A DNA stretch of 53,032 nucleotides, taken from IMG/VR virus record IMGVR_UViG_2541047822_000003. One strand, given 5' to 3'. Below the pieces are notes generated by a model. It ran no database searches, was not told the origin of the DNA, and saw nothing but the letters and a program-made list of their open reading frames with translations. This DNA is from a virus. Its lineage: Duplodnaviria; Heunggongvirae; Uroviricota; Caudoviricetes. Made by a program: the position numbers and the translations under genes. This document shows positions 12,857-29,253 of the stretch, piece after piece; position 1 is the first letter of the stretch; every line of letters begins with the position of its first letter.

Positions 12857-12863
12857 CAGCAAC

Positions 12864-12890
12864 ATGCCGCCACAGAGGCGGCATTTATTT
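12864..12890 (+). terminator. Rho-independent terminator-like hairpin after the BCCT gene
   Basis: ATGCCGCC-acaga-GGCGGCAT followed by TTATTT, 8 nt after the BCCT stop. Confidence 0.6.
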
Positions 12891-12919
12891 ATCCCGGCTG
12901 CAATATGAGGGAATGCAGA

Positions 12920-14197
12920 ATGATTTCACGCTGGAAATGGATGCTGAAGCAGACATTTAAAAAACTATGGTTCAGGGCAACGTTATTCGCAATTGTCGCA
13001 ATAATAACGGCCCTTTTATCAATTCTTTTTAAATCAATGATACCTGAGTCGGTTTCCGTGAAGGTTGGTGCGGAAGCAGTCGATAACATTCTGAACATAC
13101 TGGCATCGAGTATGCTGGCAGTGACCACATTTTCGCTGAGCATCATGGTCACAGCCTACGGTTCAGCCACTACTAATGTGACTCCCAGAGCTACTCGTTT
13201 AGTTGTTGAAGACGTCACCACACAAAATGTACTGGCCACCTTCATCGGTTCTTTTCTCTTCAGTCTGGTAGGGATTATTGCCCTCAATATGGGAGCTTAT
13301 GGAGAAAGGGGGAGAGTCATTTTATTCATTGTAACACTGGTTGTCATTGCCTTAATCCTCATCACATTGCTTCGCTGGATACAGCATTTGACCTCTCTGG
13401 GGAGGGTTGGTGAGACAACGGCAAAAGTAGAACAGGCGGCCATCGAAACATTTATTGCGAGAGCAAGAAATCCCTGTCTCGGCGGATATCCATGGCTTGA
13501 GAACAATGAACAGCCGAAAGGAACGGTTGCAGTTTATCCGAAAAAGATTGGCTATGTTGAATATGTTGATATGGTGAAACTCAGCAAGCTGCTGACCAAT
13601 GATCCCCGTCATGTATACCTCGTGGCGCAGCCGGGCAGTTTCATACATCCGTCCACGCCAGTTTTGTACCTGAGTCAGGGCCAGGAGTCATCAATCAGCA
13701 CCGATTTACTTGAGACGATTATTGTCTCGGATGTACGTTCATTTGCTCAGGACCCCCGATTTTGTCTTAGCGTCATGGCCGAAATAGCCTGCCGAGCCCT
13801 TTCCCCCGCAGTGAACGATCCTGGAACCGCCATTGATGTCATTGGCAGAGGTGTACGTATACTTTCCGCTTACGCGCAGAATAAATCTGATGAAATAGAA
13901 GTGAAATATCCTTCTGTACATGTTGCACCACTTCAGAATAACGATCTACTTGAAGACTTTTTCTCACCTGTTGCGCGCGATGGTGCCAGTATGAGGGAAA
14001 TTCAGATAAGGGTACTTAAAGGACTGTCGATGCTGAGTAAGGGTTGGCCTGGAATTTTTGCTGAAGCCGCACAAACCCTAGCATTTGAAACATTAGAGCA
14101 TGCTACTCGTGCTGACCATATAGATTCTGATAGATATCTAATAAAATCAATTTATTATAATTTATTTAGTGGCGAAGATTCTAATAAAAAACCATAG
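12920..14197 (+). CDS. Membrane protein, DUF2254-like (4 N-terminal TM helices plus soluble C-terminal domain)
   Basis: ORF 12905-14197; start preferred at ATG 12920 (GAGGGA 7 nt upstream). Four hydrophobic helices then a soluble domain; family call is from recall, not a search. Confidence 0.65.
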   Translation: MISRWKWMLKQTFKKLWFRATLFAIVAIITALLSILFKSMIPESVSVKVGAEAVDNILNILASSMLAVTTFSLSIMVTAYGSATTNVTPRATRLVVEDVTTQNVLATFIGSFLFSLVGIIALNMGAYGERGRVILFIVTLVVIALILITLLRWIQHLTSLGRVGETTAKVEQAAIETFIARARNPCLGGYPWLENNEQPKGTVAVYPKKIGYVEYVDMVKLSKLLTNDPRHVYLVAQPGSFIHPSTPVLYLSQGQESSISTDLLETIIVSDVRSFAQDPRFCLSVMAEIACRALSPAVNDPGTAIDVIGRGVRILSAYAQNKSDEIEVKYPSVHVAPLQNNDLLEDFFSPVARDGASMREIQIRVLKGLSMLSKGWPGIFAEAAQTLAFETLEHATRADHIDSDRYLIKSIYYNLFSGEDSNKKP

Positions 14198-14257
14198 TTG
14201 CGGAGCAAGCGATACGGTTGTTGGCAAGTCAAGGGCAAAGCATTCGCGTGAGAGTGG

Positions 14258-14285
14258 GCGTCTGCTTTGTGCCATGAGCGGACAT
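14258..14285 (+). repeat. 28-bp palindrome-like junction element, copy B (gcgtctgcttt-GTGCCA-tgagcggacat)
   Basis: Same 11-6-11/GTGCCA architecture; 61 bp downstream of the DUF2254 stop. Confidence 0.55.
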
Positions 14286-14489
14286 GGGCCTCCTCAGCAG
14301 TTCTGCAGACAGCTCTCGTGTAGTAAGAAACTGGAAAGCAGGGTTTCGATATCTGGTCATGAGTCTAAGATAGTCAGGACTGCGGCAGAATCGGATGTTA
14401 CTAAGCTTGGATCAACAGTATCTTCGATGTAAGAAAATTACCTTGAAAATATTTGGGGCCAAGGTTACGCTAATAAAAAATTGTCAAGT

Positions 14490-14522
14490 AAAACGCAATT
14501 ATTATATTAATAGTTGCGTTTT
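14490..14522. terminator. AT-rich hairpin between convergent genes (AAAACGCAA-15 nt-TTGCGTTTT)
   Basis: 9-bp inverted repeat read directly between the DUF2254 gene and the 3' end of the 225-aa gene; weak stem with long loop. Confidence 0.3.
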
Positions 14523-14556
14523 AATAATATCTTGCAGATGTAATAATATTGGGTGT

Positions 14557-15234
14557 TTATGTCAAACCTGCTCTACGTCCTCTTGACATAATTTCCTTCT
14601 GATAAGGAATTGTTCCATCTTTAATAAGCCTTGAGAGCTCGTTCAATCCACCATCAATTCTCTGAGAGACGTTAAAGAGAATATTTCTATTTGCTAGCAC
14701 AGGGATTAAGTATTCATACTCCTCATAGTCATCACAAAAATCCATAGCACACATACCCCACTCAGCATTTATAAATGGATCTATAACCTCATAAATAAAT
14801 TGAGATGTCAGCATTGAGACATCTTTATTAGGAGCAGCAAAATGTTGAATAGAGTTCCTCAATTTCCCAAAATCATTGTATAACTTAAGATTATTAATCT
14901 TCTTTCCAGTTGCAGCCCAAACCTTCTCAGGCAACTCTGAATAAGTAATTGTTTGCCCTTTTTCTAATAAGCTTTCAAAATCAAGAAGCCCTGTAGTTTT
15001 ATTTACGCAATCAGCTGTTGATTTTGGTAATGACTCAAAAATTAAAAGAGGGTGTTCCTGAGCAAGACGAGCTTTGAGAAAAATCTCACAAGCATGGGCT
15101 GCCTGTAAGACGCCCAATTGTGACCACATAGAGTTACTCATATCATAAAAATGAGCAAGGTAGTTGGCATGAGCAAGTGAACCTGCTCCCAAAACAATCA
15201 TATGCTCATGAACTTTTTTTAAATTAACATCCAT
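14557..15234 (-). CDS. Hypothetical protein with a HEPN-like Rx4H motif (putative RNase / abortive-infection-type protein)
   Basis: 225-aa ORF in AT-rich DNA; GAGGAG RBS 7 nt upstream; predicted alpha-helical with motif GKLRNSIQHF (R-N-x3-H) typical of HEPN catalytic sites. Motif-level inference only. Confidence 0.6.
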   Translation of the reverse strand: MDVNLKKVHEHMIVLGAGSLAHANYLAHFYDMSNSMWSQLGVLQAAHACEIFLKARLAQEHPLLIFESLPKSTADCVNKTTGLLDFESLLEKGQTITYSELPEKVWAATGKKINNLKLYNDFGKLRNSIQHFAAPNKDVSMLTSQFIYEVIDPFINAEWGMCAMDFCDDYEEYEYLIPVLANRNILFNVSQRIDGGLNELSRLIKDGTIPYQKEIMSRGRRAGLT

Positions 15235-15360
15235 TTAACACTCCTCAAAAAACATTTGTTTACGTTATCAAAAAAAGATGGGTATTGCCCACATTTTAAG
15301 ACGATTATATTTAAATTTGTTATGTGGTGTTACTTAAGTTTCGGATGAATAATATGTCTG

Positions 15361-15395
15361 CTCTTCGCTCTTCGCTCTTCGCTCTTCGCTCTTCG
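15361..15395 (+). repeat. Tandem heptanucleotide repeat (CTCTTCG)x5 plus a degenerate sixth unit
   Basis: ctcttcgctcttcgctcttcgctcttcgctcttcgctcaccg read directly; flanked by GTCTGCT (15356-15362) and GCGGAC (15402-15407), resembling arms of the junction palindrome. Confidence 0.85.
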
Positions 15396-15423
15396 CTCAC
15401 CGCGGACCTTCAGCTTCGTTAAC

Positions 15424-15451
15424 ATGTCCGCTCCGTGCCAGGAGCGGACAT
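15424..15451 (+). repeat. Perfect 28-bp palindrome, copy H (ATGTCCGCTCC-GTGCCA-GGAGCGGACAT)
   Basis: 11-bp perfect inverted arms around a 6-bp GTGCCA core; no flanking T-tract, so not a canonical intrinsic terminator; lies between the two minus-strand cargo genes. Confidence 0.8.
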
Positions 15452-15582
15452 TAATGAGTTAAGTTCTGAAAGTAGCATTAAATACGCACATGCTTTTCCT
15501 AATAACTCGATTGTCATTTATATCGTTAAACAGTTCCGGAGACAACTCTGACTTACAGGAATATCGCTAAGCCTCTGCCTCC

Positions 15583-16464
15583 CTAAGCAATATCCTGATT
15601 GCTGAGTTGAGGCATTAATCGCTCAAATAATTCATCACTTTCATAGGGGATGTTATTAATATGCCGAGAATAAATTAACCCTCTAGGACAAAGCTTGGAC
15701 AAAGAACTTTCACATAAAACACCTATACATTTTTTGTTTTCCCCTGCCATAAAGTCTTCTAAATTCCTCAAGATAAAATTTCGTGACAACTCACGATGTT
15801 CGCTTATTGCCATTCTCGCATCTTCAGAATTAATGAGAGACAGGTTAGGAAGCAAATCAGTAACATTAACGGCCACCATGCCTAGATTTTTAAGTGATGA
15901 GCTATCCTTTATCCTGCGCACGATCTGCTGGTTTGCAACTTTTATGTTTTTAGATAGTTTTTTTAACGACTTAACTCGTTTGCATTCTACAAAAAGAATT
16001 TTGCCGTCAGAGAGTTTCACTTCGATATCACAAATGCTTTTAAGAGAAATTTTATATCCTGCACGTAGAAATCTTGCAGCCATTGACAACTCAAACAGAA
16101 AGTCCCTTGCAGGATCGTTCTCAGAAGTAGCACGAAATTCTTGACCAGTGATAACCTTCTTTATTTGATCGAGATACTCCTTGATATCAAGCCATTTAAG
16201 ATCATTGTAAACTCTTATAATTTCATTAGCTTCCACGTGAGAATTCATCATCTCCTTCATAAAGGCAACTAAATTTTCATCGGGTGTATCTTTGAAAATT
16301 TTTTCACCATTTGATAGTGCTTTCAATTTTTGAAGGTTTTTGTGGTATACCCCATATCTTGTTACTGCAAACCTAAAACCCAAACTATCGAACCAAGTAC
16401 AAACCTCTTCAAATTTAGTTAACAAACCTGAAAACTCATGCTCGTATATTTCCTTGCCTTCCAT
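15583..16464 (-). CDS. Hypothetical protein with a PD-(D/E)xK-like nuclease core motif
   Basis: ORF runs to 16542 (TTG); start preferred at ATG 16464 (MEGKEIYEHEF, AAAGAGAAG upstream). Motif pattern E(FLFELSMAARFL)...D(ICDIEVKL)-SDG-KILFVECK fits a beta-hairpin D...ExK nuclease core. AT-rich. Inference. Confidence 0.6.
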   Translation of the reverse strand: MEGKEIYEHEFSGLLTKFEEVCTWFDSLGFRFAVTRYGVYHKNLQKLKALSNGEKIFKDTPDENLVAFMKEMMNSHVEANEIIRVYNDLKWLDIKEYLDQIKKVITGQEFRATSENDPARDFLFELSMAARFLRAGYKISLKSICDIEVKLSDGKILFVECKRVKSLKKLSKNIKVANQQIVRRIKDSSSLKNLGMVAVNVTDLLPNLSLINSEDARMAISEHRELSRNFILRNLEDFMAGENKKCIGVLCESSLSKLCPRGLIYSRHINNIPYESDELFERLMPQLSNQDIA

Positions 16465-16704
16465 ATTCTTCTCTTTAAATAAACCCAGATTCGTATTAGT
16501 GCTTGTCAAATTCATAGGGGCTGTGCCCCTTAAAATCATCAAGTGGGAGCTTGACCTGTAAAGATTGTGAAGCTATTCGCATCTCGATTAAATGCTCTAT
16601 ATAGTTGACCAGACCAATTTATACCAAACGGCAGAATAAAAGAAGGAATCCTCTCTGCACTTAACTAGTCATTCCTTGACTACTGTGATTAAGATCACTT
16701 CCAA

Positions 16705-16730
16705 AGTCCGCTTATCGCTCAAAGCGGACT
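16705..16730 (+). repeat. Palindrome related to the junction element (AGTCCGCTT-atcgctca-AAGCGGACT)
   Basis: 9-bp perfect arms sharing GTCCGCT/AGCGGAC with copies A, B and H but with a different 8-bp centre; upstream of the PD-(D/E)xK-like gene. Confidence 0.5.
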
Positions 16731-16908
16731 AGAAGGTTAGCTTGCGTCGGACTTGGCGTATTTAAAGAAGTGCTGGTGGTGACTGGTTGTTGTGTTCCAT
16801 TTCTACAGAACAAAATCACAGAAACTATACCCAATAGTTATATTGAATCAATGATGAGACAGCCTCATATTTATCAGAACTGGTGTACGTCCAATACAGG
16901 AGGTTGTC

Positions 16909-16998
16909 GTGCTGGTTCTCAAATGTGCGCTAGCTATTGCGGCTGTAATGGCAATTTATTGTCTTGCTGTTGTTCTTATGGAGCGGCTTTCTGATTGA
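16909..16998 (+). CDS. Candidate small hydrophobic peptide (29 aa, type I toxin-like)
   Basis: GTG start 5 nt after a perfect AGGAGG (16898-16903); product MLVLKCALAIAAVMAIYCLAVVLMERLSD is one predicted TM helix with a charged tail. Speculative; overlaps a 74-aa Cys-rich frame that I rejected. Confidence 0.3.
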   Translation: MLVLKCALAIAAVMAIYCLAVVLMERLSD

Positions 16999-17145
16999 TT
17001 ACATACTGGCTAGAAAAAAGGTGTTACCTTGGTTTATCTTTGTCCGGCAAGGTGCGCTCATTAATCTTAAGTAAATTTATTGCTCAAGTATTCAGATTAC
17101 TTCTTATGGTTGAAGTCTCCTGTCAATGTAGAACCAATATATTTA

Positions 17146-17182
17146 CAAAAATGAGACCCGTCGGGGATAGCCCTGCCGGGTC
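17146..17182 (-). terminator. Rho-independent terminator-like hairpin downstream of the 17213-17551 gene
   Basis: GACCCG...CGGGTC stem followed by a T-run on the minus strand (plus-strand caaaaatga). Confidence 0.45.
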
Positions 17183-17212
17183 TGACTGTTAAAGCATTTT
17201 TAATATGATCAT

Positions 17213-17551
17213 CTATTTTTTGGTGCTATAGACTTTTTCGCCCGAGAAGTCTGGAGCGACCCAAAAGTTAATATTAAACTGAGCATCATCGCTTAGTTCA
17301 ACACGGTGCCAGTATTGTGGTGGGCTTGTTGCAAAAGCGCCAGCATTAATGACTACTTTTATCTCCGGTTCAGTAGCATTCTCATCAGTAAAACCATAAT
17401 ATGTTACAGTGCCTTCCATTACGCACAACTGCCCAAAAACACCTGCTGCTGTATTATGATGTGTTAATAACGCTGAAGGTACGTTCTCTTTTGTGAAGAA
17501 CGGAGTTGAGCGTTTGATTACCCAATCTTTAGGAATTCTCTTGTGTGTCAT
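17213..17551 (-). CDS. Small conserved protein, possibly cupin/DUF1971-like (function unknown)
   Basis: ORF 17213-17575; start at ATG 17551 (MTHKRIPKDW) with strong GGAGG RBS; family assignment is tentative. Confidence 0.6.
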   Translation of the reverse strand: MTHKRIPKDWVIKRSTPFFTKENVPSALLTHHNTAAGVFGQLCVMEGTVTYYGFTDENATEPEIKVVINAGAFATSPPQYWHRVELSDDAQFNINFWVAPDFSGEKVYSTKK

Positions 17552-17876
17552 AACCACCTCCTCAAAAACATGCATTATAAATGCGTGTTTTTGAGGGTTA
17601 TGTCAAGCTGTTATGAAACACATAATTGATATGTTGATTAGAGGAGAAGATATAATAAATATGGTTGTTTTTCGTATAACTATTTGTTTTACTTTTAGTT
17701 TATGCATTCTGTGTGTTAGGAATAAGTTATTAAAGTTTAATCAAAAAATCTCGATGTAGTCCACATAGATTATTGTTACTGAACCTTACTGTGTGTATTA
17801 GTTGTGTTCTGAAATTTCAGCTTAATTATTTATGATGTATTTTTTAACGATAAATATTTTCCCAGGATACCTTTAC

Positions 17877-18964: not shown

Positions 18965-19254
18965 TGGTGAATTTACGTAAAGCGGCTAAAGGCCAGATGT
19001 GCCAGATCAGAATCCCTGGCTACTGCAATCACAATCCCGAAACCTCTGTGCTGGCGCATTACAGGCTGGCGGGGACGTGCGGAACAGCGACAAAACCACA
19101 CGATATGCAGGCGGCGATAGCCTGTAGCTCATGCCACGATCTAATCGACGGGCGGGTAAAAACCAGCGATTACACCAAAGAAGAATTGCGCCTGATGCAT
19201 GCTGAAGGGGTTTTTCGCACACAAGAAATCTGGAGAAAGAAAGGTCATTTATGA
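18964..19254 (+). CDS. Small Cys/His-rich protein, YbcO/DUF1364-like (putative nuclease)
   Basis: 96 aa with CxxxxxxxC ... H ... CxxCH pattern (MVNLRKAAKGQMCQIRIPGYCNHNPETSVLAH...ACSSCHDLIDGR); stop overlaps the next gene start (ATGA). Confidence 0.55.
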   Translation: MVNLRKAAKGQMCQIRIPGYCNHNPETSVLAHYRLAGTCGTATKPHDMQAAIACSSCHDLIDGRVKTSDYTKEELRLMHAEGVFRTQEIWRKKGHL

Positions 19255-19793
19255 TTTACCCAACGAATACAGGAAAAAGCGGAGAACACCTTCGCCTCAC
19301 CACGCTGGAAAGTGTCTGGATTCAGGGAAAACTACGTATGTGGGGGCGCTGGTCGTATATTGGCGGTGGCAGGTCAGGGAATATGTTCAATCAGTTGTTG
19401 GCATCCAAAAAACTGACGAAAACAGCCATTAATGAAGCCCTGCGCAGAATGAAAAAAGCGGGAATAGAGAAAGCTGAGCTGGAAGCGTTTTTGCGAGAGA
19501 TGATCAACGGCAAGCAAAAGAGCTGGCTGGCGCATTGTACTGATGCAGAGGCGTTATGTATTGATCGAGTCATAAGTGAGGTGCTGGCAGAGCATCCAGG
19601 ATTGATTTGCATTCTCCGGCAACGCTATGAAGGGCGGGGGATGACTAAGCGCAAAATGGCTGAATTGCTAAATGATGCACACCCAGAGTGGTGTTTTAGC
19701 ACATGCGAAAAACGGATTGCTAATTGGTTAGCTGTTGCTGAGTATGCCCTATATATTCCCATGCGTGAATCATTTGCTGAGAAAATGGCTTGA
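19251..19793 (+). CDS. Late-gene antitermination protein Q-like (phage 21/82/P22 gp23 family)
   Basis: 180 aa, contains RMWGRWSY resembling the conserved WGxW segment of Q21-type antiterminators; followed by a strong terminator 80 bp downstream and located upstream of the lysis cassette. Confidence 0.55.
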   Translation: MIYPTNTGKSGEHLRLTTLESVWIQGKLRMWGRWSYIGGGRSGNMFNQLLASKKLTKTAINEALRRMKKAGIEKAELEAFLREMINGKQKSWLAHCTDAEALCIDRVISEVLAEHPGLICILRQRYEGRGMTKRKMAELLNDAHPEWCFSTCEKRIANWLAVAEYALYIPMRESFAEKMA

Positions 19794-20246: not shown

Positions 20247-20837
20247 GGGCTGGTTTATTGTATGCCAAATGATTATTAAAAAGGTTGTGTTAATAACAAA
20301 ATCCGAAATAATATGCCTGCATATTTTTATCTTGCTTATATTCTGCATATTGTGCATAGCAGGCTCATCCCTGCAATCAAAACTGTATGATGAGTATTTT
20401 TTGTTTTCCTTTTTTCCAGTCATCTGATGATGACCTGCTTCTTTTTAATCCGGATCGACATCAGTTTTTTAAGATAATTCCTGCGAGTTATATGCATAAA
20501 TACCACAAACTCCGCATTTTATGTGGTTGGGAGTTGCCGGGTGCGCAGTGAGTTTGCTAAGAAAACTCCTGCATGGTGAATCCCCCTGTGCGGTGGGGTG
20601 ATACCATTAACCTTTTCTGTCGCCGACAGGTATCACGAACATTTTGTTCACCGGGAGGCACCCGGCACCATGCACTTCAATAGATTCTCTCCACATTATG
20701 GATATTCTTTCAGAATATCCCACGCAGACTTTGTGTAAATGTTAACAAATGTGCGTTTTATTTGATCTGATTCGCTGTTTGAGCGTCCAAAACAACGGTA
20801 TATATAATCCTTTACTATATGACATATGTGAGGAAAA

Positions 20838-21266
20838 ATGGGTTTTCGTAGCGCATCAATTCTTACGTTGATTATTAGTGGGATTATTATCGGGTGCACT
20901 GATGCTGTATCGACAAATTATCATGACCGTACATCATATTACTCCGATAAAGCAATAGAGACACAGTATGTGAGTTCATCTGAACGTACTTCTGATGTTA
21001 GTGAGGATATCCGTCTGTATGCCCATCAAATCAAGAGCGCCATCGAAAAACAGTTCGGGGATGCGAGTAAGTATTCAGGAAAAGAGTGTACACTGAGAAT
21101 GCATATGGCCCCGAATGGCCTTCTACTGGAGGTTAAAAGAGAAAGTGGAGACCTCGATTTATGTCGTGAAGCGATGAATGCGATAAAGAATGCTGATATA
21201 CCTGCCCCCCCTTCGCCGGAAGTATATAAAGTATTTCAAAATGGGGTGCTGGATTTTAAACCCTGA
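20838..21266 (+). CDS. Lipoprotein with a TolA C-terminal (domain III)-like domain
   Basis: Lipobox IIGC; C-terminal ~85 aa (YAHQIKSAIEKQFGDASKYSGKECTLRMHMAPNGLLLEVKRESGDLDLCREAMNAIKNADIPAPPSPEVYKVFQNGVLDFKP) closely parallels the E. coli TolA C-terminus as I recall it, including the terminal LDFKP. Confidence 0.8.
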   Translation: MGFRSASILTLIISGIIIGCTDAVSTNYHDRTSYYSDKAIETQYVSSSERTSDVSEDIRLYAHQIKSAIEKQFGDASKYSGKECTLRMHMAPNGLLLEVKRESGDLDLCREAMNAIKNADIPAPPSPEVYKVFQNGVLDFKP

Positions 21267-21416
21267 TATTTATTGTTTTGTAATAAACGGTTTCGGCTTA
21301 GGTTTGTTCTGACACAGCTACGGCACTGAGCTAAATTTAGCGGATAGTCAGCTCTGAGCCAGTGGCGGACGTAACAACTACTATTGCTGAGATTTTAATG
21401 GATTGAGGAGCAAGAA

Positions 21417-21812
21417 GTGGGATTAAAGAAAATCGTTATGTTGACTTTTTGGGTCGGTTTTGTTGCGGGATGCACACCTTTACACCCTTCAGATTGCCAC
21501 AAAACTACTGCTACAGGTAGTTGCAGTTCAGGACGCTGGGATGATCAGGATGAATGGGGGGCGCAAGCGCGGGGAATCAGAGCTGCAATTAATGCCAAAC
21601 TTGATGAGCCGCATAACTGGAAAGGGAAAAAATGCAGGTTGCATATGGAATTCTCTCAGGATGGCACGGCGTTAAAAATATCTACCAGTAACGGTGATAA
21701 AGCCTATTGCGAAGCGATAAAGTCCGCAGCTCATAAAGCCAAATTTCCGGCCTTCAACAATCCGGAAGTCTACAGAGATTTTCAGAAATCTGGCTTTGAC
21801 ATGCGAGGTTAG
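21417..21812 (+). CDS. Lipoprotein, divergent paralog with TolA C-terminal-like domain
   Basis: Lipobox VAGC; conserved Cys pair and K-x-x-A-x-x-P-x-x-x-PEVY motif (KKCRLHMEFSQDGTALKI...YCEAIKSAAHKAKFPAFNNPEVYRDFQ) matching the upstream paralog. Confidence 0.7.
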   Translation: MGLKKIVMLTFWVGFVAGCTPLHPSDCHKTTATGSCSSGRWDDQDEWGAQARGIRAAINAKLDEPHNWKGKKCRLHMEFSQDGTALKISTSNGDKAYCEAIKSAAHKAKFPAFNNPEVYRDFQKSGFDMRG

Positions 21813-23237: not shown

Positions 23238-23374
23238 AATCTTAACTACAATATGATTCATTTTGATGATTGTTTCATAAGGAACAGTGAAGTAAGATCT
23301 AAGAGGAGTTAAATTTTATACAGTATAATCATAATATTGCAGCAAGGTGGTTATAATTGAAAGAATATTTAGAT

Positions 23375-24832
23375 ATGAATACATCTCATGTAAGAGTTGT
23401 TACTCATATGTGTGGGTTCCTGGTTTGGCTCTATAGTCTTTCAATGTTGCCACCAATGGTTGTAGCATTGTTTTATAAAGAAAAAAGCCTGTTCGTTTTC
23501 TTTATAACTTTCGTTATATTTTTTTGCATTGGTGGCGGAGCGTGGTATACAACTAAGAAATCTGGCATTCAATTACGTACCCGTGATGGGTTTATTATAA
23601 TTGTAATGTTTTGGATTTTGTTTTCTGTTATTAGTGCATTCCCTTTATGGATTGACTCAGAACTTAATTTAACGTTCATTGATGCTCTGTTTGAAGGGGT
23701 TTCTGGAATAACAACAACAGGAGCAACTGTAATTGATGATGTTAGTTCATTACCTCGGGCATATTTGTACTATCGGTCACAGTTAAATTTTATAGGTGGT
23801 TTAGGAGTTATTGTTCTGGCGGTTGCTGTATTGCCATTATTGGGTATTGGTGGTGCAAAGCTTTATCAGTCAGAAATGCCGGGGCCATTTAAGGATGACA
23901 AACTCACTCCCCGCCTGGCCGATACGTCACGGACACTGTGGATAACTTATTCTTTATTAGGTATTGCTTGTATTGTCTGTTATAGACTTGCAGGAATGCC
24001 TTTGTTTGATGCTATTTGTCACGGGATTTCCACAGTTTCGCTTGGTGGTTTCTCAACTCATAGCGAGAGTATCGGATATTTTAATAACTATTTGGTTGAG
24101 CTGGTGGCTGGTTCTTTTTCCCTGCTATCGGCTTTCAACTTCACTCTTTGGTATATTGTTATTAGCAGGAAAACGATAAAACCTTTAATCAGAGATATTG
24201 AACTTCGTTTCTTTCTGTTAATAGCCTTAGGGGTGATCATTGTTACCTCTTTCCAGGTCTGGCATATAGGTATGTATGACTTGCATGGAAGTTTTATTCA
24301 TTCGTTTTTTCTTGCCAGCTCCATGCTCACTGATAATGGTTTAGCTACGCAGGATTATGCAAGTTGGCCCACGCACACGATAGTGTTTTTGCTGTTGTCA
24401 AGTTTCTTTGGGGGATGTATAGGTTCAACTTGTGGTGGAATTAAGTCACTTCGATTTCTTATACTTTTCAAACAAAGCAAACACGAGATAAATCAGCTTT
24501 CTCATCCCAGAGCGTTGTTGAGTGTAAATGTAGGAGGGAAGATAGTTACAGATCGTGTAATGAGGTCTGTATGGAGTTTCTTTTTTCTTTATACTCTCTT
24601 CACGGTGTTTTTTATACTGGTGTTAAATGGTATGGGATATGATTTTCTTACATCATTTGCAACAGTGGCTGCATGTATTAATAATATGGGATTAGGTTTT
24701 GGGGCTACTGCATCGTCATTCGGAGTGCTTAATGACATTGCAAAATGTTTAATGTGCATAGCTATGATTCTTGGTCGCCTTGAAATTTATCCTGTTATTA
24801 TATTGTTTTCAGGTTTTTTTTGGCGCTCCTAA
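23375..24832 (+). CDS. trkG: Potassium uptake protein TrkG (Rac cargo)
   Basis: ORF 23357-24832; start at MNTSHVRVVTHMCGFLVWLYSL; 485-aa polytopic membrane protein; AT-rich; recognised as Rac TrkG. Confidence 0.9.
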   Translation: MNTSHVRVVTHMCGFLVWLYSLSMLPPMVVALFYKEKSLFVFFITFVIFFCIGGGAWYTTKKSGIQLRTRDGFIIIVMFWILFSVISAFPLWIDSELNLTFIDALFEGVSGITTTGATVIDDVSSLPRAYLYYRSQLNFIGGLGVIVLAVAVLPLLGIGGAKLYQSEMPGPFKDDKLTPRLADTSRTLWITYSLLGIACIVCYRLAGMPLFDAICHGISTVSLGGFSTHSESIGYFNNYLVELVAGSFSLLSAFNFTLWYIVISRKTIKPLIRDIELRFFLLIALGVIIVTSFQVWHIGMYDLHGSFIHSFFLASSMLTDNGLATQDYASWPTHTIVFLLLSSFFGGCIGSTCGGIKSLRFLILFKQSKHEINQLSHPRALLSVNVGGKIVTDRVMRSVWSFFFLYTLFTVFFILVLNGMGYDFLTSFATVAACINNMGLGFGATASSFGVLNDIAKCLMCIAMILGRLEIYPVIILFSGFFWRS

Positions 24833-24969
24833 TATATGGCTGATTTATAATTGTGAGTTTAATATTATGTTGACTCACTCATTGATCCAATACCTAACTT
24901 TACCAGCAACCCCTCCGTCCCCAGTAGCACTGGCTGCTGGGGTGCGTTTTATTCATAAAGCAAGGCTGT

Positions 24970-25761
24970 ATGAGCGAGAAATTAAAGATAGTCTATCGCC
25001 CATTACAAGAATTGTCACCGTATGCGCACAACGCCAGGACGCACAGCCCTGAGCAGGTGGCACAACTGGTAGAAAGTATTAAGCAATTCGGCTGGACTAA
25101 TCCGGTGCTGATTGACGAAAAGGGCGAAATTATTGCGGGTCACGGTCGTGTTATGGCGGCTGAAATGCTCAAAATGGATTCTGTTCCGGTCATTGTTCTG
25201 TCTGGCCTGACGGATGAGCAGAAAAAGGCGTACCGCCTGGCAGATAATCGCCTGCCGATGAATGCTGGCTGGGATGAAGATCTGTTGCGGATGGAGCTGT
25301 CGGACCTAATCAATGCTGATTTTGATGTCTCCCTGACAGGCTTCATCCCGACAGAAATTGATGAACTGTTGACGGATGTTTTGCCCGGTACAGGAAATGA
25401 GGAGGAGCCGTATACGACGAAAATTGATACGCCTGTTTATGAGCCGTCGGGCGGTAAACCGGATATCAGTGAACTGTACGACGATACGAAAACTCAGGAG
25501 CTGATCAGCCGGATACGTTCGGCGTCCCTTGAGCCTGATATTGAGAAATTCCTCCTGTGTGCGGCAGAACGTCACACGGTGTTTAATTTCAGCAGAATTG
25601 CGGACTATTACGCTCACGCCCCCTCTGAAATTCAGTGTTTTTTCGAGGAGTCGGCGCTGGTGATCATTGATTATCAGCAGGCTATTGAAAATGGATTTGT
25701 CCGGATGACGCAGCGCATGGTGGAGATCATGCATGGTGGTGAGGAGGAGGAATATGCGTGA
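24970..25761 (+). CDS. ynaK: ParB-like nuclease domain protein (full-length YnaK-like)
   Basis: 263 aa; N-terminal ParB/Srx-like segment (LSPYAHNARTHSPEQVAQLVESIKQFGWTNPVLIDEKGEIIAGHGR); precedes the packaging genes. Symbol by synteny with Rac. Confidence 0.65.
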   Translation: MSEKLKIVYRPLQELSPYAHNARTHSPEQVAQLVESIKQFGWTNPVLIDEKGEIIAGHGRVMAAEMLKMDSVPVIVLSGLTDEQKKAYRLADNRLPMNAGWDEDLLRMELSDLINADFDVSLTGFIPTEIDELLTDVLPGTGNEEEPYTTKIDTPVYEPSGGKPDISELYDDTKTQELISRIRSASLEPDIEKFLLCAAERHTVFNFSRIADYYAHAPSEIQCFFEESALVIIDYQQAIENGFVRMTQRMVEIMHGGEEEEYA

Positions 25762-26686
25762 TGATTTTTGCGCCTTTATTCTGACTCACGGGCGACCGGA
25801 CAAAGTTCTGACTTACCGGACGTTGCGTCGTGCTGGCTATACCGGGAAAATTTTTATCGTTGTTGATGATGAAGATAAGACACGGAATCAGTACATGGCT
25901 GAATTTGGTGAACAGGTGCTGGTGTTTTCCAAAGCCGATATCGCCAGTCGTTTTGACGAAGCCGATAATTTCTGTGACCGCCGCTCAATTTTTTACGCCC
26001 GTAATGCCTGTTTCGACCTGGCAAAACTGGTCGGGTGTAAATACTTCATTCAGCTCGATGATGATTATCACGAGTTCCAGTTTCGGGTGGATCGCAACTA
26101 TGACCAGGCCTATTTTCCGATAAGGAAACTGGATGCGATCCTTTCTGAAATGCTGGCGTACTACGAATCAATACCTGCTCTTTCCATCGCTATGTCGCAG
26201 GGCGGGGATTTTCTTGGTGACAATGGCGGCCATGCTTCGTGGGTGAAACGCAAGGCAATGAACAGCTTTATCTGTTCGGTTGATCGACCGTTCTCATTCA
26301 TGGGGCGCATTAACGAGGATGTGAATACGTACACGAATCTCGGTCGCTGTGGTGAATTGTTTATGACGATCGGTGCTGTCCAGTTAGGGCAGAAACAGAC
26401 GCAGAAAAACAGCGGCGGAATGACCGAGCTGTATCTGGATTCCGGAACCTACGTTAAAAGTTTTTACTCCGTCATGTATGCGCCGTCGTGCGTAAAAATC
26501 TCACTGATGGGTGCCAGCCATAAACGCATTCACCATCAGGTCACCTGGAACAACGCTGCAGTAAAAATCCTTCACGAAAAATACAGGAAGAAGACACCCT
26601 GCATATCAATGGGGGTGACAAATGATTCCGTATTCGAAAGTCGAGTCTCTGGCAGCGTGCCGGATGACTGCACAACAAATCGCTGA
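25754..26686 (+). CDS. Hypothetical protein with GT-A glycosyltransferase-like motif pattern
   Basis: ORF 25733-26686; start at ATG 25754 (GAGGAGG upstream). Pattern beta1 FILTHGRPD, beta2 KIFIVVDDEDK, then QLDDDY resembles a GT-A Rossmann-like nucleotide-sugar transferase core with DxD motif. Inference. Confidence 0.55.
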   Translation: MRDDFCAFILTHGRPDKVLTYRTLRRAGYTGKIFIVVDDEDKTRNQYMAEFGEQVLVFSKADIASRFDEADNFCDRRSIFYARNACFDLAKLVGCKYFIQLDDDYHEFQFRVDRNYDQAYFPIRKLDAILSEMLAYYESIPALSIAMSQGGDFLGDNGGHASWVKRKAMNSFICSVDRPFSFMGRINEDVNTYTNLGRCGELFMTIGAVQLGQKQTQKNSGGMTELYLDSGTYVKSFYSVMYAPSCVKISLMGASHKRIHHQVTWNNAAVKILHEKYRKKTPCISMGVTNDSVFESRVSGSVPDDCTTNR

Positions 26687-26873
26687 CGTTCTGGATGTTG
26701 ATCTGAACCGACTGAAAGAAAATCGGGAAGCAATGACAGATTTTTATGCGGCCATCCGTAAGGGCAGAGCGAAAGGTGAAGCCGAGTTACGAGCGGCATT
26801 GTTTAAGCTTGCCAGAAAAGGGGATGCCTTTGCTCTGCGCGAACTACTCAGGGTGGATAAAAATCAGGACTAA
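26622..26873 (+). CDS. Small hypothetical protein upstream of terminase
   Basis: 83-aa ORF overlapping the 3' end of the preceding gene; basic and helical; could be spurious. Confidence 0.35.
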   Translation: MIPYSKVESLAACRMTAQQIADVLDVDLNRLKENREAMTDFYAAIRKGRAKGEAELRAALFKLARKGDAFALRELLRVDKNQD

Positions 26874-26876
26874 CTG

Positions 26877-27971
26877 ATGAGCAGACCGGACTGGGGGGCG
26901 TTGCAGCAGGAGTATATTGCTGAATACACCCGCTCCGGTATATCTCCGGTGGCATGGTGTGAAGCAAGGGGACTGAATTACGCAACAGCCCGTCGTTACA
27001 TCAAAAAAACTCCGAAAAATGCGCAGACAGAAATGTGCAAAACTGCGCAAAAAAGTGCGCAGAAAAAATCTGCGCAGACTGCACAAAAGCGGAACGAAAA
27101 ATCTCAGGAAAAAAAGCCAGTATTCGATGCGGGCCTGAATGAGGGCGACGCGGAGGAATTTTCGTTCTGTCCCGATGAATTCGGCATTTCTGACCAGCAG
27201 GCTAAGTTTGCGATGCTTGTTGCTCAGGGTAAAAAGCCGACAGAGGCGTACCGACTAGCCGGTTATGAGGGGCAAGGTGCGACAGCTAACAGCAACGCCA
27301 GTCGTATGCTTAGAAATGCCAGGGTTTTTCGCGCTATCAGCTACTTCCGCAATCAGTACCAGAAACGCTATACCGCAGACCTGGATTTACTAGTGAGTCA
27401 GTTGATGGCTATTGTCCTGGCCGACCCCAATCAGCTTGCACAATTTCGCCGTGTTAACTGCCGTTATTGCTGGGGCGAGAATCATCTCTACCAGTGGCGC
27501 GATATAGCAGAATTCGACAAGGCAGCGGCGCAGGCTTCCAGAGATGGCAAACCCGAACCGGAATATGGAGGCCTCGGCTTTGTTGATAACGCCATACCCA
27601 ATCCGGACTGCCCGAAGTGCTGCGGTGAGGGAACGGGACAGCTTTATATGGCTGATACCACTCTGCTTGATGGGGATGCGCGGCAATTATATGCAGGGGC
27701 AAAATTCGGAAAATTCGGCGTTGAGATCCTGCTGGAGGATAAGGCTGCCGCCCGGCGTGAATTGTTGCGTTTGTTTTCTGCTGGCGGGGCTTTATGTGCA
27801 GATAAACGGCTACAGGAACTGGAAATTGAACGGCGCAGAATGGAAAACCAGAAGCTGCGCAAAGAGATCGAAACGGTGGAAGATAATGAACATCCCCAGC
27901 CTGTGGCGATCAATATTAATGTGGTTGATGCCAGAGTAAGGAGTGATGAAGATGATCTCTCCGACGCTTAA
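26877..27971 (+). CDS. Terminase small subunit (N-terminal HTH)
   Basis: 364 aa; N-terminus with HTH-like segment (GISPVAWCEARGLNYATARRYIKK); immediately upstream of the large subunit. Confidence 0.7.
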   Translation: MSRPDWGALQQEYIAEYTRSGISPVAWCEARGLNYATARRYIKKTPKNAQTEMCKTAQKSAQKKSAQTAQKRNEKSQEKKPVFDAGLNEGDAEEFSFCPDEFGISDQQAKFAMLVAQGKKPTEAYRLAGYEGQGATANSNASRMLRNARVFRAISYFRNQYQKRYTADLDLLVSQLMAIVLADPNQLAQFRRVNCRYCWGENHLYQWRDIAEFDKAAAQASRDGKPEPEYGGLGFVDNAIPNPDCPKCCGEGTGQLYMADTTLLDGDARQLYAGAKFGKFGVEILLEDKAAARRELLRLFSAGGALCADKRLQELEIERRRMENQKLRKEIETVEDNEHPQPVAININVVDARVRSDEDDLSDA

Positions 27972-29253
27972 TGTGCCTCAGGCGCGATTTCTTTCAATGC
28001 CCCATAAATTTAAAGCCTATATTGCTGGTTTTGGCTCGGGCAAAACATGGGTTGGGTGTGGCGGCATATGCAAGGGGATTTGGGAGCATCCAGGTATAAA
28101 TCAGGGATATTTTGCGCCAACGTATCCCCAAATTCGCGATATTTTTTACCCTACAGTGGAAGAAGTTGCTGCTGACTGGGGATTGAACGTAAAAATTAAT
28201 GAGGGAAATAAAGAGGTTCACTTTTATTACGGACGCCAGTATCGGGGAACCACTATCTGCAGATCGATGGAGAAGCCACAAACGATCGTCGGTTTCAAAA
28301 TTGGTAATGCGTTGGTGGATGAACTGGACATTTTGCCGAAGGAAAAAGCCAGAACGGCGTGGCGCAAGATAATTGCACGTATGCGTTATAAGATTGATGG
28401 ACTTCGCAACGGTATTGACGTTACAACCACGCCGGAAGGATTCAAATTTGTCTACGAGCAGTTTGTTAAAGCCGTGCGTGAAAAAACAGAGCTGGCCTCA
28501 CTGTATGGTCTGGTGCAGGCATCTACTTTCGATAATGAAAAGAACCTGCCAGCAGATTACATTCCTTCGCTTCTTGAATCATACCCTCCAGAGCTGATTA
28601 AAGCCTATCTTCGAGGACAGTTTACTAACCTGACAAGTGGTACTGTTTACCATCAGTTTGACCGGAAACTGAATAATTGCGAAGAAGTGGAGCAGCCAGG
28701 GGAGCCGATTTATATTGGGATGGATTTTAACGTTGGAAAGATGGCGGGAATCGTCCATGTGCTGCGTTTGGGGCTTCCATGTGCGGTAACTGAAATCATC
28801 AATGCCTACGATACGCCGGATATGATCCGCATCATTAAAGAACGCTTCTGGCTGTATGATGGGAATGATTACCGGAAAGTGAGGGAAATTTATATTTATC
28901 CAGATGCTTCCGGGGATTCCAGAAAATCAAGTAACGCAAGTACGACGGATATAGCCCAGCTTAAGCAGGCTGGTTTTAACGTTGTGGTGAACAGCTCGAA
29001 CCCGCCAGTAAAAGATCGCGTTAACTCAATGAATGCAATGTTCTGCAATGCCAATGGTGAGCGTCGCTATAAAGTTAATGTGAAGCGTTGCCCGTTATAT
29101 GCCGAATCTCTGGAGCAACAGGTCTGGGATGAGAAGGGGGAGCCTGATAAAAAATCTGGCAATGATCACCCGAATGATGCCGGAGGTTATTTCATCGTTA
29201 AGCAATTCCCTATTGTCAAACCGACCGGAAGAGTCACATCACTTCGGATTTAA
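27943..29253 (+). CDS. Terminase large subunit
   Basis: 436 aa; Walker A-like GFGSGKT near the N-terminus; followed by the portal gene. Confidence 0.8.
   Translation: MMKMISPTLNVPQARFLSMPHKFKAYIAGFGSGKTWVGCGGICKGIWEHPGINQGYFAPTYPQIRDIFYPTVEEVAADWGLNVKINEGNKEVHFYYGRQYRGTTICRSMEKPQTIVGFKIGNALVDELDILPKEKARTAWRKIIARMRYKIDGLRNGIDVTTTPEGFKFVYEQFVKAVREKTELASLYGLVQASTFDNEKNLPADYIPSLLESYPPELIKAYLRGQFTNLTSGTVYHQFDRKLNNCEEVEQPGEPIYIGMDFNVGKMAGIVHVLRLGLPCAVTEIINAYDTPDMIRIIKERFWLYDGNDYRKVREIYIYPDASGDSRKSSNASTTDIAQLKQAGFNVVVNSSNPPVKDRVNSMNAMFCNANGERRYKVNVKRCPLYAESLEQQVWDEKGEPDKKSGNDHPNDAGGYFIVKQFPIVKPTGRVTSLRI

Follow-up and report, generated by a model that had tools for sequence, protein, structure and literature searches.

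A ParB-like partner protein and a TAGT-family glycosyltransferase paired at the head of a phage packaging operon: a candidate DNA glycosylation module

What is the function of two overlapping genes placed immediately upstream of the terminase in a lambdoid, Rac-like prophage of E. coli? At present, sugars on phage DNA are explained as additions to hydroxymethyl-pyrimidines. An earlier note on the DNA studied here, a 53,032-nucleotide viral stretch (IMG/VR record IMGVR_UViG_2541047822_000003; hereafter the window), described the first gene as encoding a ParB-like nuclease-domain protein and the second as a possible nucleotide-sugar transferase with a role in DNA or surface glycosylation. The second gene falls in a family, TAGT, whose 'solitary' homologues have been left unexplained in 288 of 753 glycosyltransferase-encoding phages (PMC13216743). 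The locus is laid out as follows.

24919-24952, + strand: terminator-like hairpin and T-run, after the trkG moron and 27 nt 5' of the ORF A start
24970-25761, + strand: ORF A (ynaK in relatives), ParB-like partner protein, 263 aa
25754-26686, + strand: ORF B, TAGT-family GT-A glycosyltransferase, 310 aa (Pfam and PHROG matches)
26664-26873, + strand: small ORF, 69 aa from ATG 26664 (83 aa from 26622), matching PHROG 309 (E = 8e-23)
26877-27971, + strand: terminase small subunit, TerS (Pfam and PHROG)
27943-29253, + strand: terminase large subunit, TerL (Pfam and PHROG)

ORF calls and profile searches place trkG (23357-24832) 5' of the pair and a small HTH ORF, TerS and TerL 3' of it, in agreement with the position between trkG and the terminase given in the earlier note; both ORFs of the pair are on the + strand. 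Read from its first ATG, the second ORF spans 25733-26686 (317 aa). ATG 25754 is the likely start of ORF B: the Shine-Dalgarno sequence GGAGGAGGAG lies 5' of it at 25742-25751, and the resulting 310 aa is the length of RefSeq WP_001204037.1 (the 311 aa previously given had counted the stop codon). The start of ORF B and the stop of ORF A then overlap by 8 nt (ATGCGTGA). The hairpin in front of the pair has a 10-bp stem with seven GC pairs, followed by TGCGTTTTAT, and a promoter scan at the pair returned promoter-like sites without enrichment, none above chance; expression of the pair should therefore need antiterminated late transcription. A Q-like antiterminator (DUF1133/Phage_antitermQ) is encoded at 19251-19793.

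The small ORF at 26664-26873 overlaps the C-terminal tail of ORF B, a tail that is lineage-specific. It is labelled hypothetical protein in an identical prophage and is kept in relatives; it matches only part of PHROG 309, a terminase-small-subunit group, and probably belongs with the packaging genes and not with the two-gene module. In K-12 Rac, ynaK is indeed much shorter, as had been pointed out: only 87 aa remain, followed directly by ydaY, and what a deletion has removed comprises the transferase, terminase and head genes as well as the remainder of ORF A. Among 5426 complete E. coli genomes, 867 (about one in six) cover 80% or more of the 2.3-kb region.

ORF A is an acidic protein (pI 4.5, net charge about -25), matched over its whole length by PHROG 620 (E = 8.5e-91). 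It can be divided into three parts.

24970-25371, + strand: ParB/Srx nucleotide-binding domain (aa 1-95) and helical extension (aa 103-134)
25411-25446, + strand: invariant linear motif (Y148-T-T-K-I-D-T-P-V-Y-E-P159); the linker around it is predicted to be disordered in the monomer
25480-25758, + strand: C-terminal helical partner domain (CTD) and acidic tail

The N-terminal ParB/Srx segment noticed earlier is borne out: residues 23-90 match Pfam ParB_N above its gathering score (E = 1.2e-6), and Foldseek with the AlphaFold2 model of the ParB region (pLDDT about 80-93) retrieves Noc, ParB-CTP, KorB, PadC and Srx, with E-values down to 1e-6. Invariant alignment columns correspond to N21, H25, S36, G57-x-G59-R60 and D92-N93. 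Profiles and model together point to a ParB/Srx fold with a predicted nucleotide pocket and conserved GxxR and DN motifs. The domain and its helical extension also form the N-terminal part of phage ParB-DNA methyltransferase fusions: residues 3-141 match PHROG 498 'DNA methyltransferase' (E = 1e-50) and residues 10-144 match PADLOC MTase_II (E = 2e-38), this methyltransferase-type ParB module being the sole match among the PADLOC defence-system profiles. ORF A does not look like a canonical partition ParB of a ParABS system: it scores 38.5 bits against TIGR00180 (cutoff 58.45), over the N-domain only, profile searches find no HTH in it, and the annotation of the identical prophage holds no ParA gene. 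As for the nuclease, the word is a mere name for ORF A and the activity finds no support in this analysis; the closest tested precedent is a ParB-like protein that activates a phage DNA dioxygenase (PMC13229309).

ORF B is a member of Pfam TAGT (PF20691; E = 8.4e-35; score 121 bits, cutoff 27.5), its residues 15-229 spanning the profile from position 4 to the last, 205, and of PHROG 842 (E = 1e-103). All its close homologues carry PF20691 as well. The family of TET-associated glycosyltransferases adopts a GT-A fold and includes TET-linked phage DNA glycosyltransferases and the T2/T6 enzyme, by which glucosyl-hmC receives its second glucose. Profile searches thus place the second protein in a transferase family, as had been supposed, and the three motifs quoted in support of a GT-A enzyme are present: FILTHGRPD (aa 8-16), KIFIVVDDEDK (aa 32-42) and QLDDDY (aa 100-105). 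The main catalytic-type residues are encoded at the following positions.

25793-25795, + strand: R14
26057-26065, + strand: D102-D103-D104
26312-26320, + strand: N187-E188-D189
26531-26536, + strand: H260-H261

Together with D41, R83, D152, K167 and R258, these residues are invariant or nearly so in 41 diverse homologues, down to 38% identity, and they include the R...DDD...ED motifs known from trypanosome JGT and from the GT-A enzymes that glycosylate phage DNA. ORF B is best explained as a catalytically active GT-A enzyme of the TAGT/JGT/GREB1 family that draws its sugar from a nucleotide donor. Some homologues carry a sugar-tailoring domain by fusion (a SAM methyltransferase, a sulfotransferase or a second glycosyltransferase), and others have an N-terminal region that looks like a P-loop kinase, judged by eye from the Walker A sequence alone. 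A tblastn search with ORF B (E<=1e-5) returned 36 records with no T-even phage among them, which sets its subfamily apart from the T6 enzyme.

The two genes are found together far beyond E. coli. When viral loci were selected by the transferase, the partner module lay directly upstream in 80 of 80. The reverse selection, by the partner, found the transferase within 150 nt in 65 of 75 viral loci; in eight more a single gene is inserted between the two, encoding a sugar-activating His_Phos_1 plus cytidylyltransferase-like protein. Partner-selected genome loci, from many bacterial phyla, have an adjacent transferase in 40 of 42 cases, and stand-alone partner proteins are followed by it in all four neighbourhoods. 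The pairing is obligate. The only partner-transferase gene fusion found (P0081) has a truncated partner domain on a short assembly, is probably a frameshift and was not used as evidence; the N-terminal extensions of fused transferases likewise proved not to be partner domains, being a second glycosyltransferase, a methyltransferase or the P-loop-kinase-like region. The pair stands immediately 5' of terminase genes with four types of TerL (Terminase_6N, Terminase_3, TerL_ATPase and GpA), also in L. gasseri phage phi jlb1. It is carried by the haloarchaeal virus HHTV-2, with the terminase large subunit about 3 kb downstream, and by Vibrio phages of 191 kb, where it sits among replication genes. 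Flanking genes are lineage-specific and in some relatives include NAD-salvage genes or a cytidylyltransferase-like gene. Literature searches found no published experimental data on HHTV-2 DNA modification or on the ParB/glycosyltransferase pair.

Which part of ORF A is paired with the transferase? Comparison of the partner sequences indicates that it is the part beyond the ParB domain, and not the ParB domain itself. Many partners have no ParB domain and the module is often a free-standing protein of about 130 aa, so that DNA tethering cannot be the core role of the pairing; DNA-methyltransferase-type ParB domains have been fused to it repeatedly. Its motif has the general form Y-[T/S]-x-K-I-x-x-P-x-Y-E-P. 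Among 232 distinct partner sequences, the first Y, both central positions P and Y and the closing P are kept in 232, 232, 232 and 228 respectively, T/S in 231, K in 220 and E in 211. The distance from the motif to SALVIIDF is fixed at 90 aa in 229 of the 232. In ORF A, disorder is predicted for residues 136-170, and the motif and linker have a pLDDT below 55 in the AlphaFold2 model; this first model of the full protein was built on a shallow alignment and is poor in its C-terminal half. The CTD follows the pattern FLLxAAERHTVFNF...IADYYAHA...FEESALVIIDY..AIE.GF and is rich in polar positions that never vary (R, H, D, S, Y). It matches no Pfam family and no fold relative was found; similarity to solved ParB dimerisation domains is undetectable. 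A Pfam scan of 75 partner domains gave a consistent match to PF23887 (Phage L5 gene 47-like), which is limited to 20 residues, below threshold (best E = 4.5e-4) and uninformative. The motif and the acidic helical CTD form a previously undescribed module, the constant companion of the ORF B subfamily of transferases.

If the transferase modifies DNA, it should have an acceptor. To our knowledge, every DNA transferase so far characterised in the TAGT family works on a hydroxymethyl-pyrimidine or on a sugar that such a base already bears. Neither the annotation of the identical prophage nor Pfam scans of the unknown ORFs of the window revealed a TET/5mYOX enzyme, a C5-methyltransferase or a hydroxymethylase, and relatives, small phages with the module among them, were found to have none of these either; TET_JBP is also missing from the four neighbourhoods with precomputed Pfam hits. 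The genomic association with TET/JBP (5mYOX) that gave TAGT its name is therefore not seen for ORF B. The hmC pathway is equally absent from the window and from small pair-carrying phages, with no dCMP hydroxymethylase, alpha-GT or beta-GT. In the absence of a source of 5hmC or 5hmU, a DNA acceptor would have to be part of ordinary DNA.

We propose, with a probability of roughly 45%, that the pair is a late-expressed, two-subunit DNA glycosylation module, by analogy with ParB-activated phage thymine dioxygenases. ORF A and ORF B would be translationally coupled and expressed with the late (packaging) genes. The partner would bind and activate the transferase, and its ParB domain, where present, may hold the enzyme on replicated phage dsDNA; a sugar would be placed on the DNA before packaging and could shield the phage from restriction in the next host. 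Complex formation, the DNA acceptor and the anti-restriction role are what we infer from several lines of evidence: the TAGT match with its invariant active site, the obligate pairing and the overlapping start and stop codons; a ParB domain of ParB-CTPase fold with the helical extension also found on phage DNA methyltransferases; an architecture shared with the activator of 5mYOX176; and the terminase-side slot, the replication-gene setting in Vibrio phages, the sugar-tailoring fusions and the inserted sugar-activating gene. Against a DNA target speak the lack of an evident acceptor, the acidity of a partner with no DNA-binding domain, and GREB1, which glycosylates a protein. One bolder version of the DNA reading, in our opinion unlikely, takes partner and transferase to be self-sufficient: the sugar would go directly onto unmodified DNA, for instance by N-glycosylation of an exocyclic amine, without a hydroxymethyl precursor, the novel partner domain providing base recognition or activation.

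The main rival, which we hold to be possible if doubtful, makes the partner itself the acceptor. The transferase would O-glycosylate hydroxyls of the motif in the manner of glycogenin or GREB1, and the acidic glycoprotein would be the functional product, perhaps serving in packaging, mimicking DNA or acting as a decoy. The Tyr, Thr/Ser and Tyr of the motif are near-universal (231-232 of 232 partners) and lie where the monomer is predicted to be disordered; the core module needs no DNA-related domain, is commonly a stand-alone protein and is very acidic, no DNA acceptor is available, and GREB1, a member of the family, O-GlcNAcylates a protein. However, the rigid spacing between motif and domain and the invariant polar residues are more in keeping with one folded unit or an interface than with a tail that simply receives sugar, DNA-methyltransferase-type ParB domains have repeatedly been joined to the partner, and such a glycoprotein has no known role.

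Quite improbably, the transferase could act on a small molecule or nucleotide, such as a host immune signal or a ParB-held nucleotide, as an anti-defence measure. ParB folds bind CTP, ATP or GTP (PMC12704722), no macromolecular acceptor is evident, and the NAD-salvage or cytidylyltransferase-like genes beside the pair in some relatives would fit a nucleotide target; yet these flanking genes vary with lineage, the inserted gene reads more simply as a supplier of donor sugar, many partners have no ParB domain to hold a nucleotide, and known defence and anti-defence models are unmatched save for the methyltransferase-type N-terminal module.

Two further readings follow database names and are very improbable. 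ORF B could be a sugar extender of T2/T6 type, as its PHROG/Pharokka name (beta-glucosyl-HMC-alpha-glucosyltransferase) and the Pfam family and PHROG shared with the T6 enzyme suggest; such an enzyme needs glucosyl-hmC DNA and would here be inert unless T-even DNA superinfects, but the missing hmC pathway and alpha/beta-GT and the 36 tblastn records free of T-even phages speak against it, and the obligate partner, with strong conservation that reaches across phyla to an archaeal virus, favours a function that is complete in itself. That the genes are unrelated, ORF A a partition ParB or packaging nuclease and ORF B a surface (O-antigen, teichoic acid) transferase for seroconversion, draws on database names and on TarP, a wall-teichoic-acid transferase reported as the top solved structural match of phage GT-A enzymes, but is hard to reconcile with near-universal adjacency in both directions and overlapping frames, with an ORF A that has no HTH, scores below the TIGR00180 cutoff and has no ParA gene beside it in the annotation of the identical prophage, with hosts of unrelated envelopes, a haloarchaeon included, and with an identical-prophage annotation that lists no Gtr-type flippase or membrane partner; the surface-glycosylation role is unlikely.

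Altogether, one large subfamily of solitary TAGT enzymes turns out not to be solitary: it is tied to an undescribed partner domain, often fused to ParB, and the pair occupies the start of the packaging operon from enterobacterial phages to a haloarchaeal virus. Three misleading database names can be set right ('beta-glucosyl-HMC-alpha-glucosyltransferase', 'partition protein' and 'ynaK pseudogene'). Whether the sugar proves to sit on canonical DNA or on the ParB-like protein, the result would be new. Sugar placed directly on ordinary DNA would, if true, amount to a kind of DNA modification not seen before, spread over many phyla and archaeal viruses. The pair would also widen the notion that ParB-like proteins are general activators of DNA-modifying enzymes, which has so far been shown for one dioxygenase only. 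The question of the acceptor can be reduced to a two-gene test in E. coli, a native carrier of the pair.

Among known systems, the nearest in architecture is the phage T-dioxygenase 5mYOX176, which requires the ParB-like activator ParB176 on dsDNA, with cognate-specific partners (O'Toole et al., PNAS 2026, PMC13229309); 5mYOX clusters are often near terminase genes (PMC13229309). ORF A, like ParB176, combines a nucleotide-binding domain, a short helical segment, a disordered linker (about 35 aa in ORF A) and a C-terminal domain, and has no HTH. The CTD of ORF A appears to be a family of its own, strongly conserved and also found in proteins that have no ParB domain, and the enzyme is here a predicted glycosyltransferase in place of a 5-methylpyrimidine dioxygenase.

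ORF B itself resembles the TET/5mYOX-associated phage GT-A enzymes (Burke 2021; Pyle 2024) and the trypanosome base-J glucosyltransferase in PF20691 membership and R...DDD...ED motifs. The phage enzymes, too, frequently have ParB-like and terminase genes nearby, but their substrate, 5hmC or 5hmU, comes from a methylase plus TET next to them or from a T-dioxygenase, none of which is present here; Pyle et al. set aside the roughly 65% of glycosyltransferase-containing contigs without such neighbours as 'less likely' DNA modifiers. The T2/T6 beta-glucosyl-HMC-alpha-glucosyltransferase shares its Pfam family and PHROG with ORF B, the source of the database name of the homologues. Its acceptor is alpha-glucosyl-5hmC DNA and its donor UDP-glucose; it extends a glucose already present on T-even hmC and has no partner gene, whereas ORF B lies beyond tblastn detection from it and belongs to temperate phages with ordinary DNA.

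Finally, phage ParB-DNA methyltransferase fusions (PHROG 498, PADLOC MTase_II) have the ParB domain and helical extension in common with ORF A, which carries the motif and CTD in place of the methyltransferase domain and would recruit a separate glycosyltransferase. Iyer et al. (2013), who defined TAGT, are reported to have proposed that modification enzymes are guided by ParB while DNA is being packaged.

Two overlapping plus-strand ORFs at 24970-26686, placed by an earlier note between trkG and the terminase small subunit (TerS), are both present in the window, a Rac-like lambdoid E. coli prophage. trkG indeed lies upstream and TerS downstream, with a small HTH ORF preceding the latter; the order after the pair is this small ORF, TerS, TerL and the portal gene. 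The features are:

23357-24952, trkG region, upstream of ORF A, with the lysis genes on its other side
24919-24942, strong terminator-like hairpin 3' of trkG, only 27 nt ahead of ORF A
24970-25761, plus strand, ORF A, ParB-like protein of 263 aa
25733-26686, plus strand, ORF B, open frame of the transferase; likely start ATG 25754, giving 310 aa
26622-26873, small ORF of 69 or 83 aa just ahead of the annotated TerS, with a terminase-small-subunit PHROG match

The junction sequence, GGAGGAGGAGGAATATGCGTGATGA, indicates a strong ribosome-binding site ahead of ATG 25754. From this start, ORF B shares its first 8 nt with the end of ORF A, stop codon included, and its product is identical to RefSeq WP_001204037.1. 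With a GC of 0.33-0.41 vs ~0.50 in the flanks, trkG is a low-GC insert. The small ORF matches the TerS PHROG solely in the middle (positions 145-218 of 319) and may represent a TerS HTH that is either split off or accessory; the 28 residues that form the C-terminal tail of the transferase, which the homologue alignment limits to the E. coli lineage, are encoded in overlap with it.

Elsewhere in the prophage, TolA C-terminal domains occur in a pair of neighbouring ORFs (142 and 131 aa, 20838-21812) just upstream of the lysis cassette, one of these ORFs being annotated as a tolA fragment in relatives. A non-phage cargo block (10853-17575) between the replication and late-regulation genes encodes a BCCT transporter and a DUF2254 protein, its ORFs 14557-15234 and 15583-16542 having no Pfam match; in a relative it also holds LysR, gamma-glutamylcyclotransferase and MFS transporter genes.

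The second protein had been described as GT-A-like, and profile matches bear this out: Pfam PF20691 (TAGT, TET-associated glycosyltransferase; E 8.4e-35, far over the curated cutoff) and PHROG 842 (E 1e-103). Recent papers treat PF20691 as a GT-A fold family, including the T2/T6 enzyme that puts a second glucose on glucosyl-hmC, phage GT-A enzymes glycosylating TET-made 5hmC, the trypanosome base-J glucosyltransferase and GREB1, a protein O-GlcNAc transferase. Aligning 41 homologues, the most distant at 38% identity, shows R14, D41, R83, D102-D103-D104, D152, K167, N187/D189, R258 and H260-H261 to vary little or not at all. These residues constitute the R...DDD...ED site described for TAGT/GT-A enzymes, and its conservation makes it very probable that ORF B is active. 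The large subfamily comprises 1324 clusters at 50% identity.

The N-terminal segment of ORF A that the earlier note called ParB/Srx-like is a ParB/Srx nucleotide-binding domain (aa 1-95): it matches Pfam ParB_N, and structural matches of the AF2 model include Noc, CTP-bound ParB, KorB, PadC and sulfiredoxin. The pocket residues N21, S36, G57-x-G59-R60 and D92-N93 are invariant. No HTH was found in ORF A, and it scores under the cutoff of the canonical ParB model. When the helical extension after it (aa 103-134) is included, the domain corresponds to the N-terminal module of phage ParB-DNA-methyltransferase fusions (PHROG 498, E 1e-50; PADLOC MTase_II, E 2e-38).

The real partner of the transferase is the C-terminal module of ORF A. 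It starts with a linear motif, Y-[T/S]-x-K-I-x-x-P-x-Y-E-P, whose first Y, P and second Y occur in 232/232 distinct sequences and T/S in 231/232; next come a helical domain, in which numerous polar positions (R-H, Y, S, D) are invariant, and an acidic tail. The distance from the linear motif to the SALVIIDF motif is a constant 90 residues in 229/232. The ParB-like half, in turn, varies in subfamily among 80 IMG/VR loci selected by the transferase, and 191-kb Vibrio phages have an upstream protein of just 139 aa, made up of motif and C-terminal domain without ParB domain. A profile of the region retrieves 1222 proteins, the best 120 being mostly stand-alone, ~130 aa long and without Pfam domain; 99 of the 235 collected proteins bearing the domain measure 100-149 aa. 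A sub-threshold but consistent 20-residue match to PF23887 (mycobacteriophage L5 gene 47-like; best E 4.5e-4) was seen in 58/75 partner domains, at window 25570-25629 (ORF A aa 201-220).

All 80 transferase-selected loci have the partner module in the gene directly upstream. Selecting by partner domain instead, the transferase lies within 150 nt in 65/75 viral loci; eight have one gene inserted and two are E. coli deletion variants. It adjoins the partner in 40/42 genome loci (exceptions: a contig end and a prophage edge) and is the next gene in 4/4 neighbourhoods of stand-alone partners. Hosts include Enterobacterales, Bacteroidales, Alphaproteobacteria, Desulfovibrionaceae, Clostridia, Spirochaetes, Chlorobi, Saccharibacteria and Actinobacteria. 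Transferase relatives also occur in cultured phages of Lactobacillus, Nocardia and Vibrio and in haloarchaeal virus HHTV-2; for three of these, one Vibrio phage, phi jlb1 of L. gasseri and HHTV-2, the record was inspected, and in each the partner gene adjoins the transferase.

Immediately 3' of the pair come terminase genes, which belong to four different TerL families; phi jlb1 shows this arrangement too. TerL lies a few genes downstream in at least 24/31 diverged viral loci, and ~3 kb downstream in HHTV-2. One such terminase, of 739 aa in a metagenomic phage (L062 7255-9474), has an intein splicing domain after its Terminase_3 and nuclease domains. In three other loci (L088-L090, e.g. L088 5449-9225), NAD-salvage-type genes (isochorismatase/nicotinamidase-like, NAPRTase and an F420_ligase-like gene) directly precede a stand-alone partner and TAGT; in L088 an N6/N4 DNA methyltransferase gene comes after the transferase.

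A gene of ~317 aa (e.g. L146 2909-3892), encoding His_Phos_1 (histidine phosphatase) fused to a cytidylyltransferase-like domain, separates partner and transferase in 8/25 diverged partner-selected viral loci (L146, L147, L148, L150, L152, L153, L156, L160); in L148 it and the ParB-like partner apparently form a single in-frame fusion of 576 aa. Its product probably makes an activated donor. Some transferase homologues are fused to a SAM methyltransferase, a sulfotransferase or a second GT, and one has a P-loop-kinase-like N-terminal region, recognised from Walker A sequence alone. These fusions and the inserted gene fit construction or supply of an activated sugar.

Among complete E. coli genomes, 867/5426 cover the 2.3-kb stretch at 80% or more. 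The K-12 ynaK was rightly called much shorter: in Rac it has just 87 aa, followed by ydaY, a deletion having taken the remainder of ORF A, the transferase, terminase and head genes. Two IMG/VR E. coli prophages carry deletions of their own, joined within the transferase gene:

L110, window 25839 joined to 32812
L111, window 25819 joined to 27253

With K-12 Rac, they mark the region as a frequent site of prophage decay. PGAP names the transferase 'hypothetical', and in at least one genome that is identical across the 2.3 kb it treats the intact ORF A as a pseudogene of ynaK: in NZ_CP033250.1 (L001), where ORF A has all 263 aa and a sequence 100% identical to that in the window, its first 258 nt (20271-20528; window 24970-25227) are annotated as a C-terminally incomplete 'ynaK'. 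This label looks like an artefact of the truncated K-12 reference.

Of the DNA or surface glycosylation envisaged earlier, DNA is the better reading. Our best-supported model (probability roughly 0.45) is a late-expressed two-subunit enzyme that would modify replicated DNA before packaging. The acidic partner (predicted pI of ORF A 4.5) would bind the mildly basic transferase (~8.6) via linear motif and helical domain; where a ParB domain is fused to the partner, as in this lineage, it would contribute a nucleotide-dependent, DNA-associated function, and late expression beside the terminase would place modification immediately ahead of packaging. The DNA reading draws on the N-terminal module shared with ParB-methyltransferase fusions. 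Its weak point is the chemistry: characterised DNA enzymes of the TAGT family all need a hydroxymethyl base, bare or already sugar-bearing, and here there is none. No TET/5mYOX dioxygenase, C5-methyltransferase or hydroxymethylase was found in this prophage or in the neighbourhoods of the pair that were examined. Addition of sugar to canonical DNA would be categorically new; we consider it unlikely, yet a real prospect.

The main rival, unlikely though somewhat less so, is that the partner itself is the acceptor. In its favour are a flexible segment holding invariant Tyr and Thr/Ser, the many partners that lack any DNA-related domain, and the GREB1 precedent; however, the constant spacing and many invariant polar residues of the helical domain suggest a module exceeding an acceptor tail. 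A small molecule or nucleotide as acceptor is less likely again, and a T6-like sugar-extending role, or unrelated genes for partition and surface glycosylation, are very improbable.

Frequent proximity of GT-A genes to ParB-like and terminase genes has been remarked in passing (PMC13229309 among sources), solitary TAGTs are acknowledged as unexplained (PMC13216743), and glycosyltransferase partners go unmentioned in a survey of the ParB-CTPase fold (PMC12704722). We came across no paper that describes the partner domain or its obligate pairing with this TAGT subfamily, and no experimental work on it. We class the pair with the phage enzymes of nucleic-acid hypermodification that have ParB-like partners; a directing role of ParB proteins for modification enzymes during packaging appears to have been proposed first by Iyer et al. 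2013. Clusters of 5mYOX, the phage 5-methylpyrimidine dioxygenases, often adjoin GTs, ParBs and terminases (PMC13229309). The closest tested precedent is 5mYOX176, a phage thymine dioxygenase that requires a ParB-like protein specifically on dsDNA; like ORF A, that protein has a nucleotide-binding domain, short helices, a disordered linker and a C-terminal domain, and lacks a DNA-binding domain (PMC13229309).
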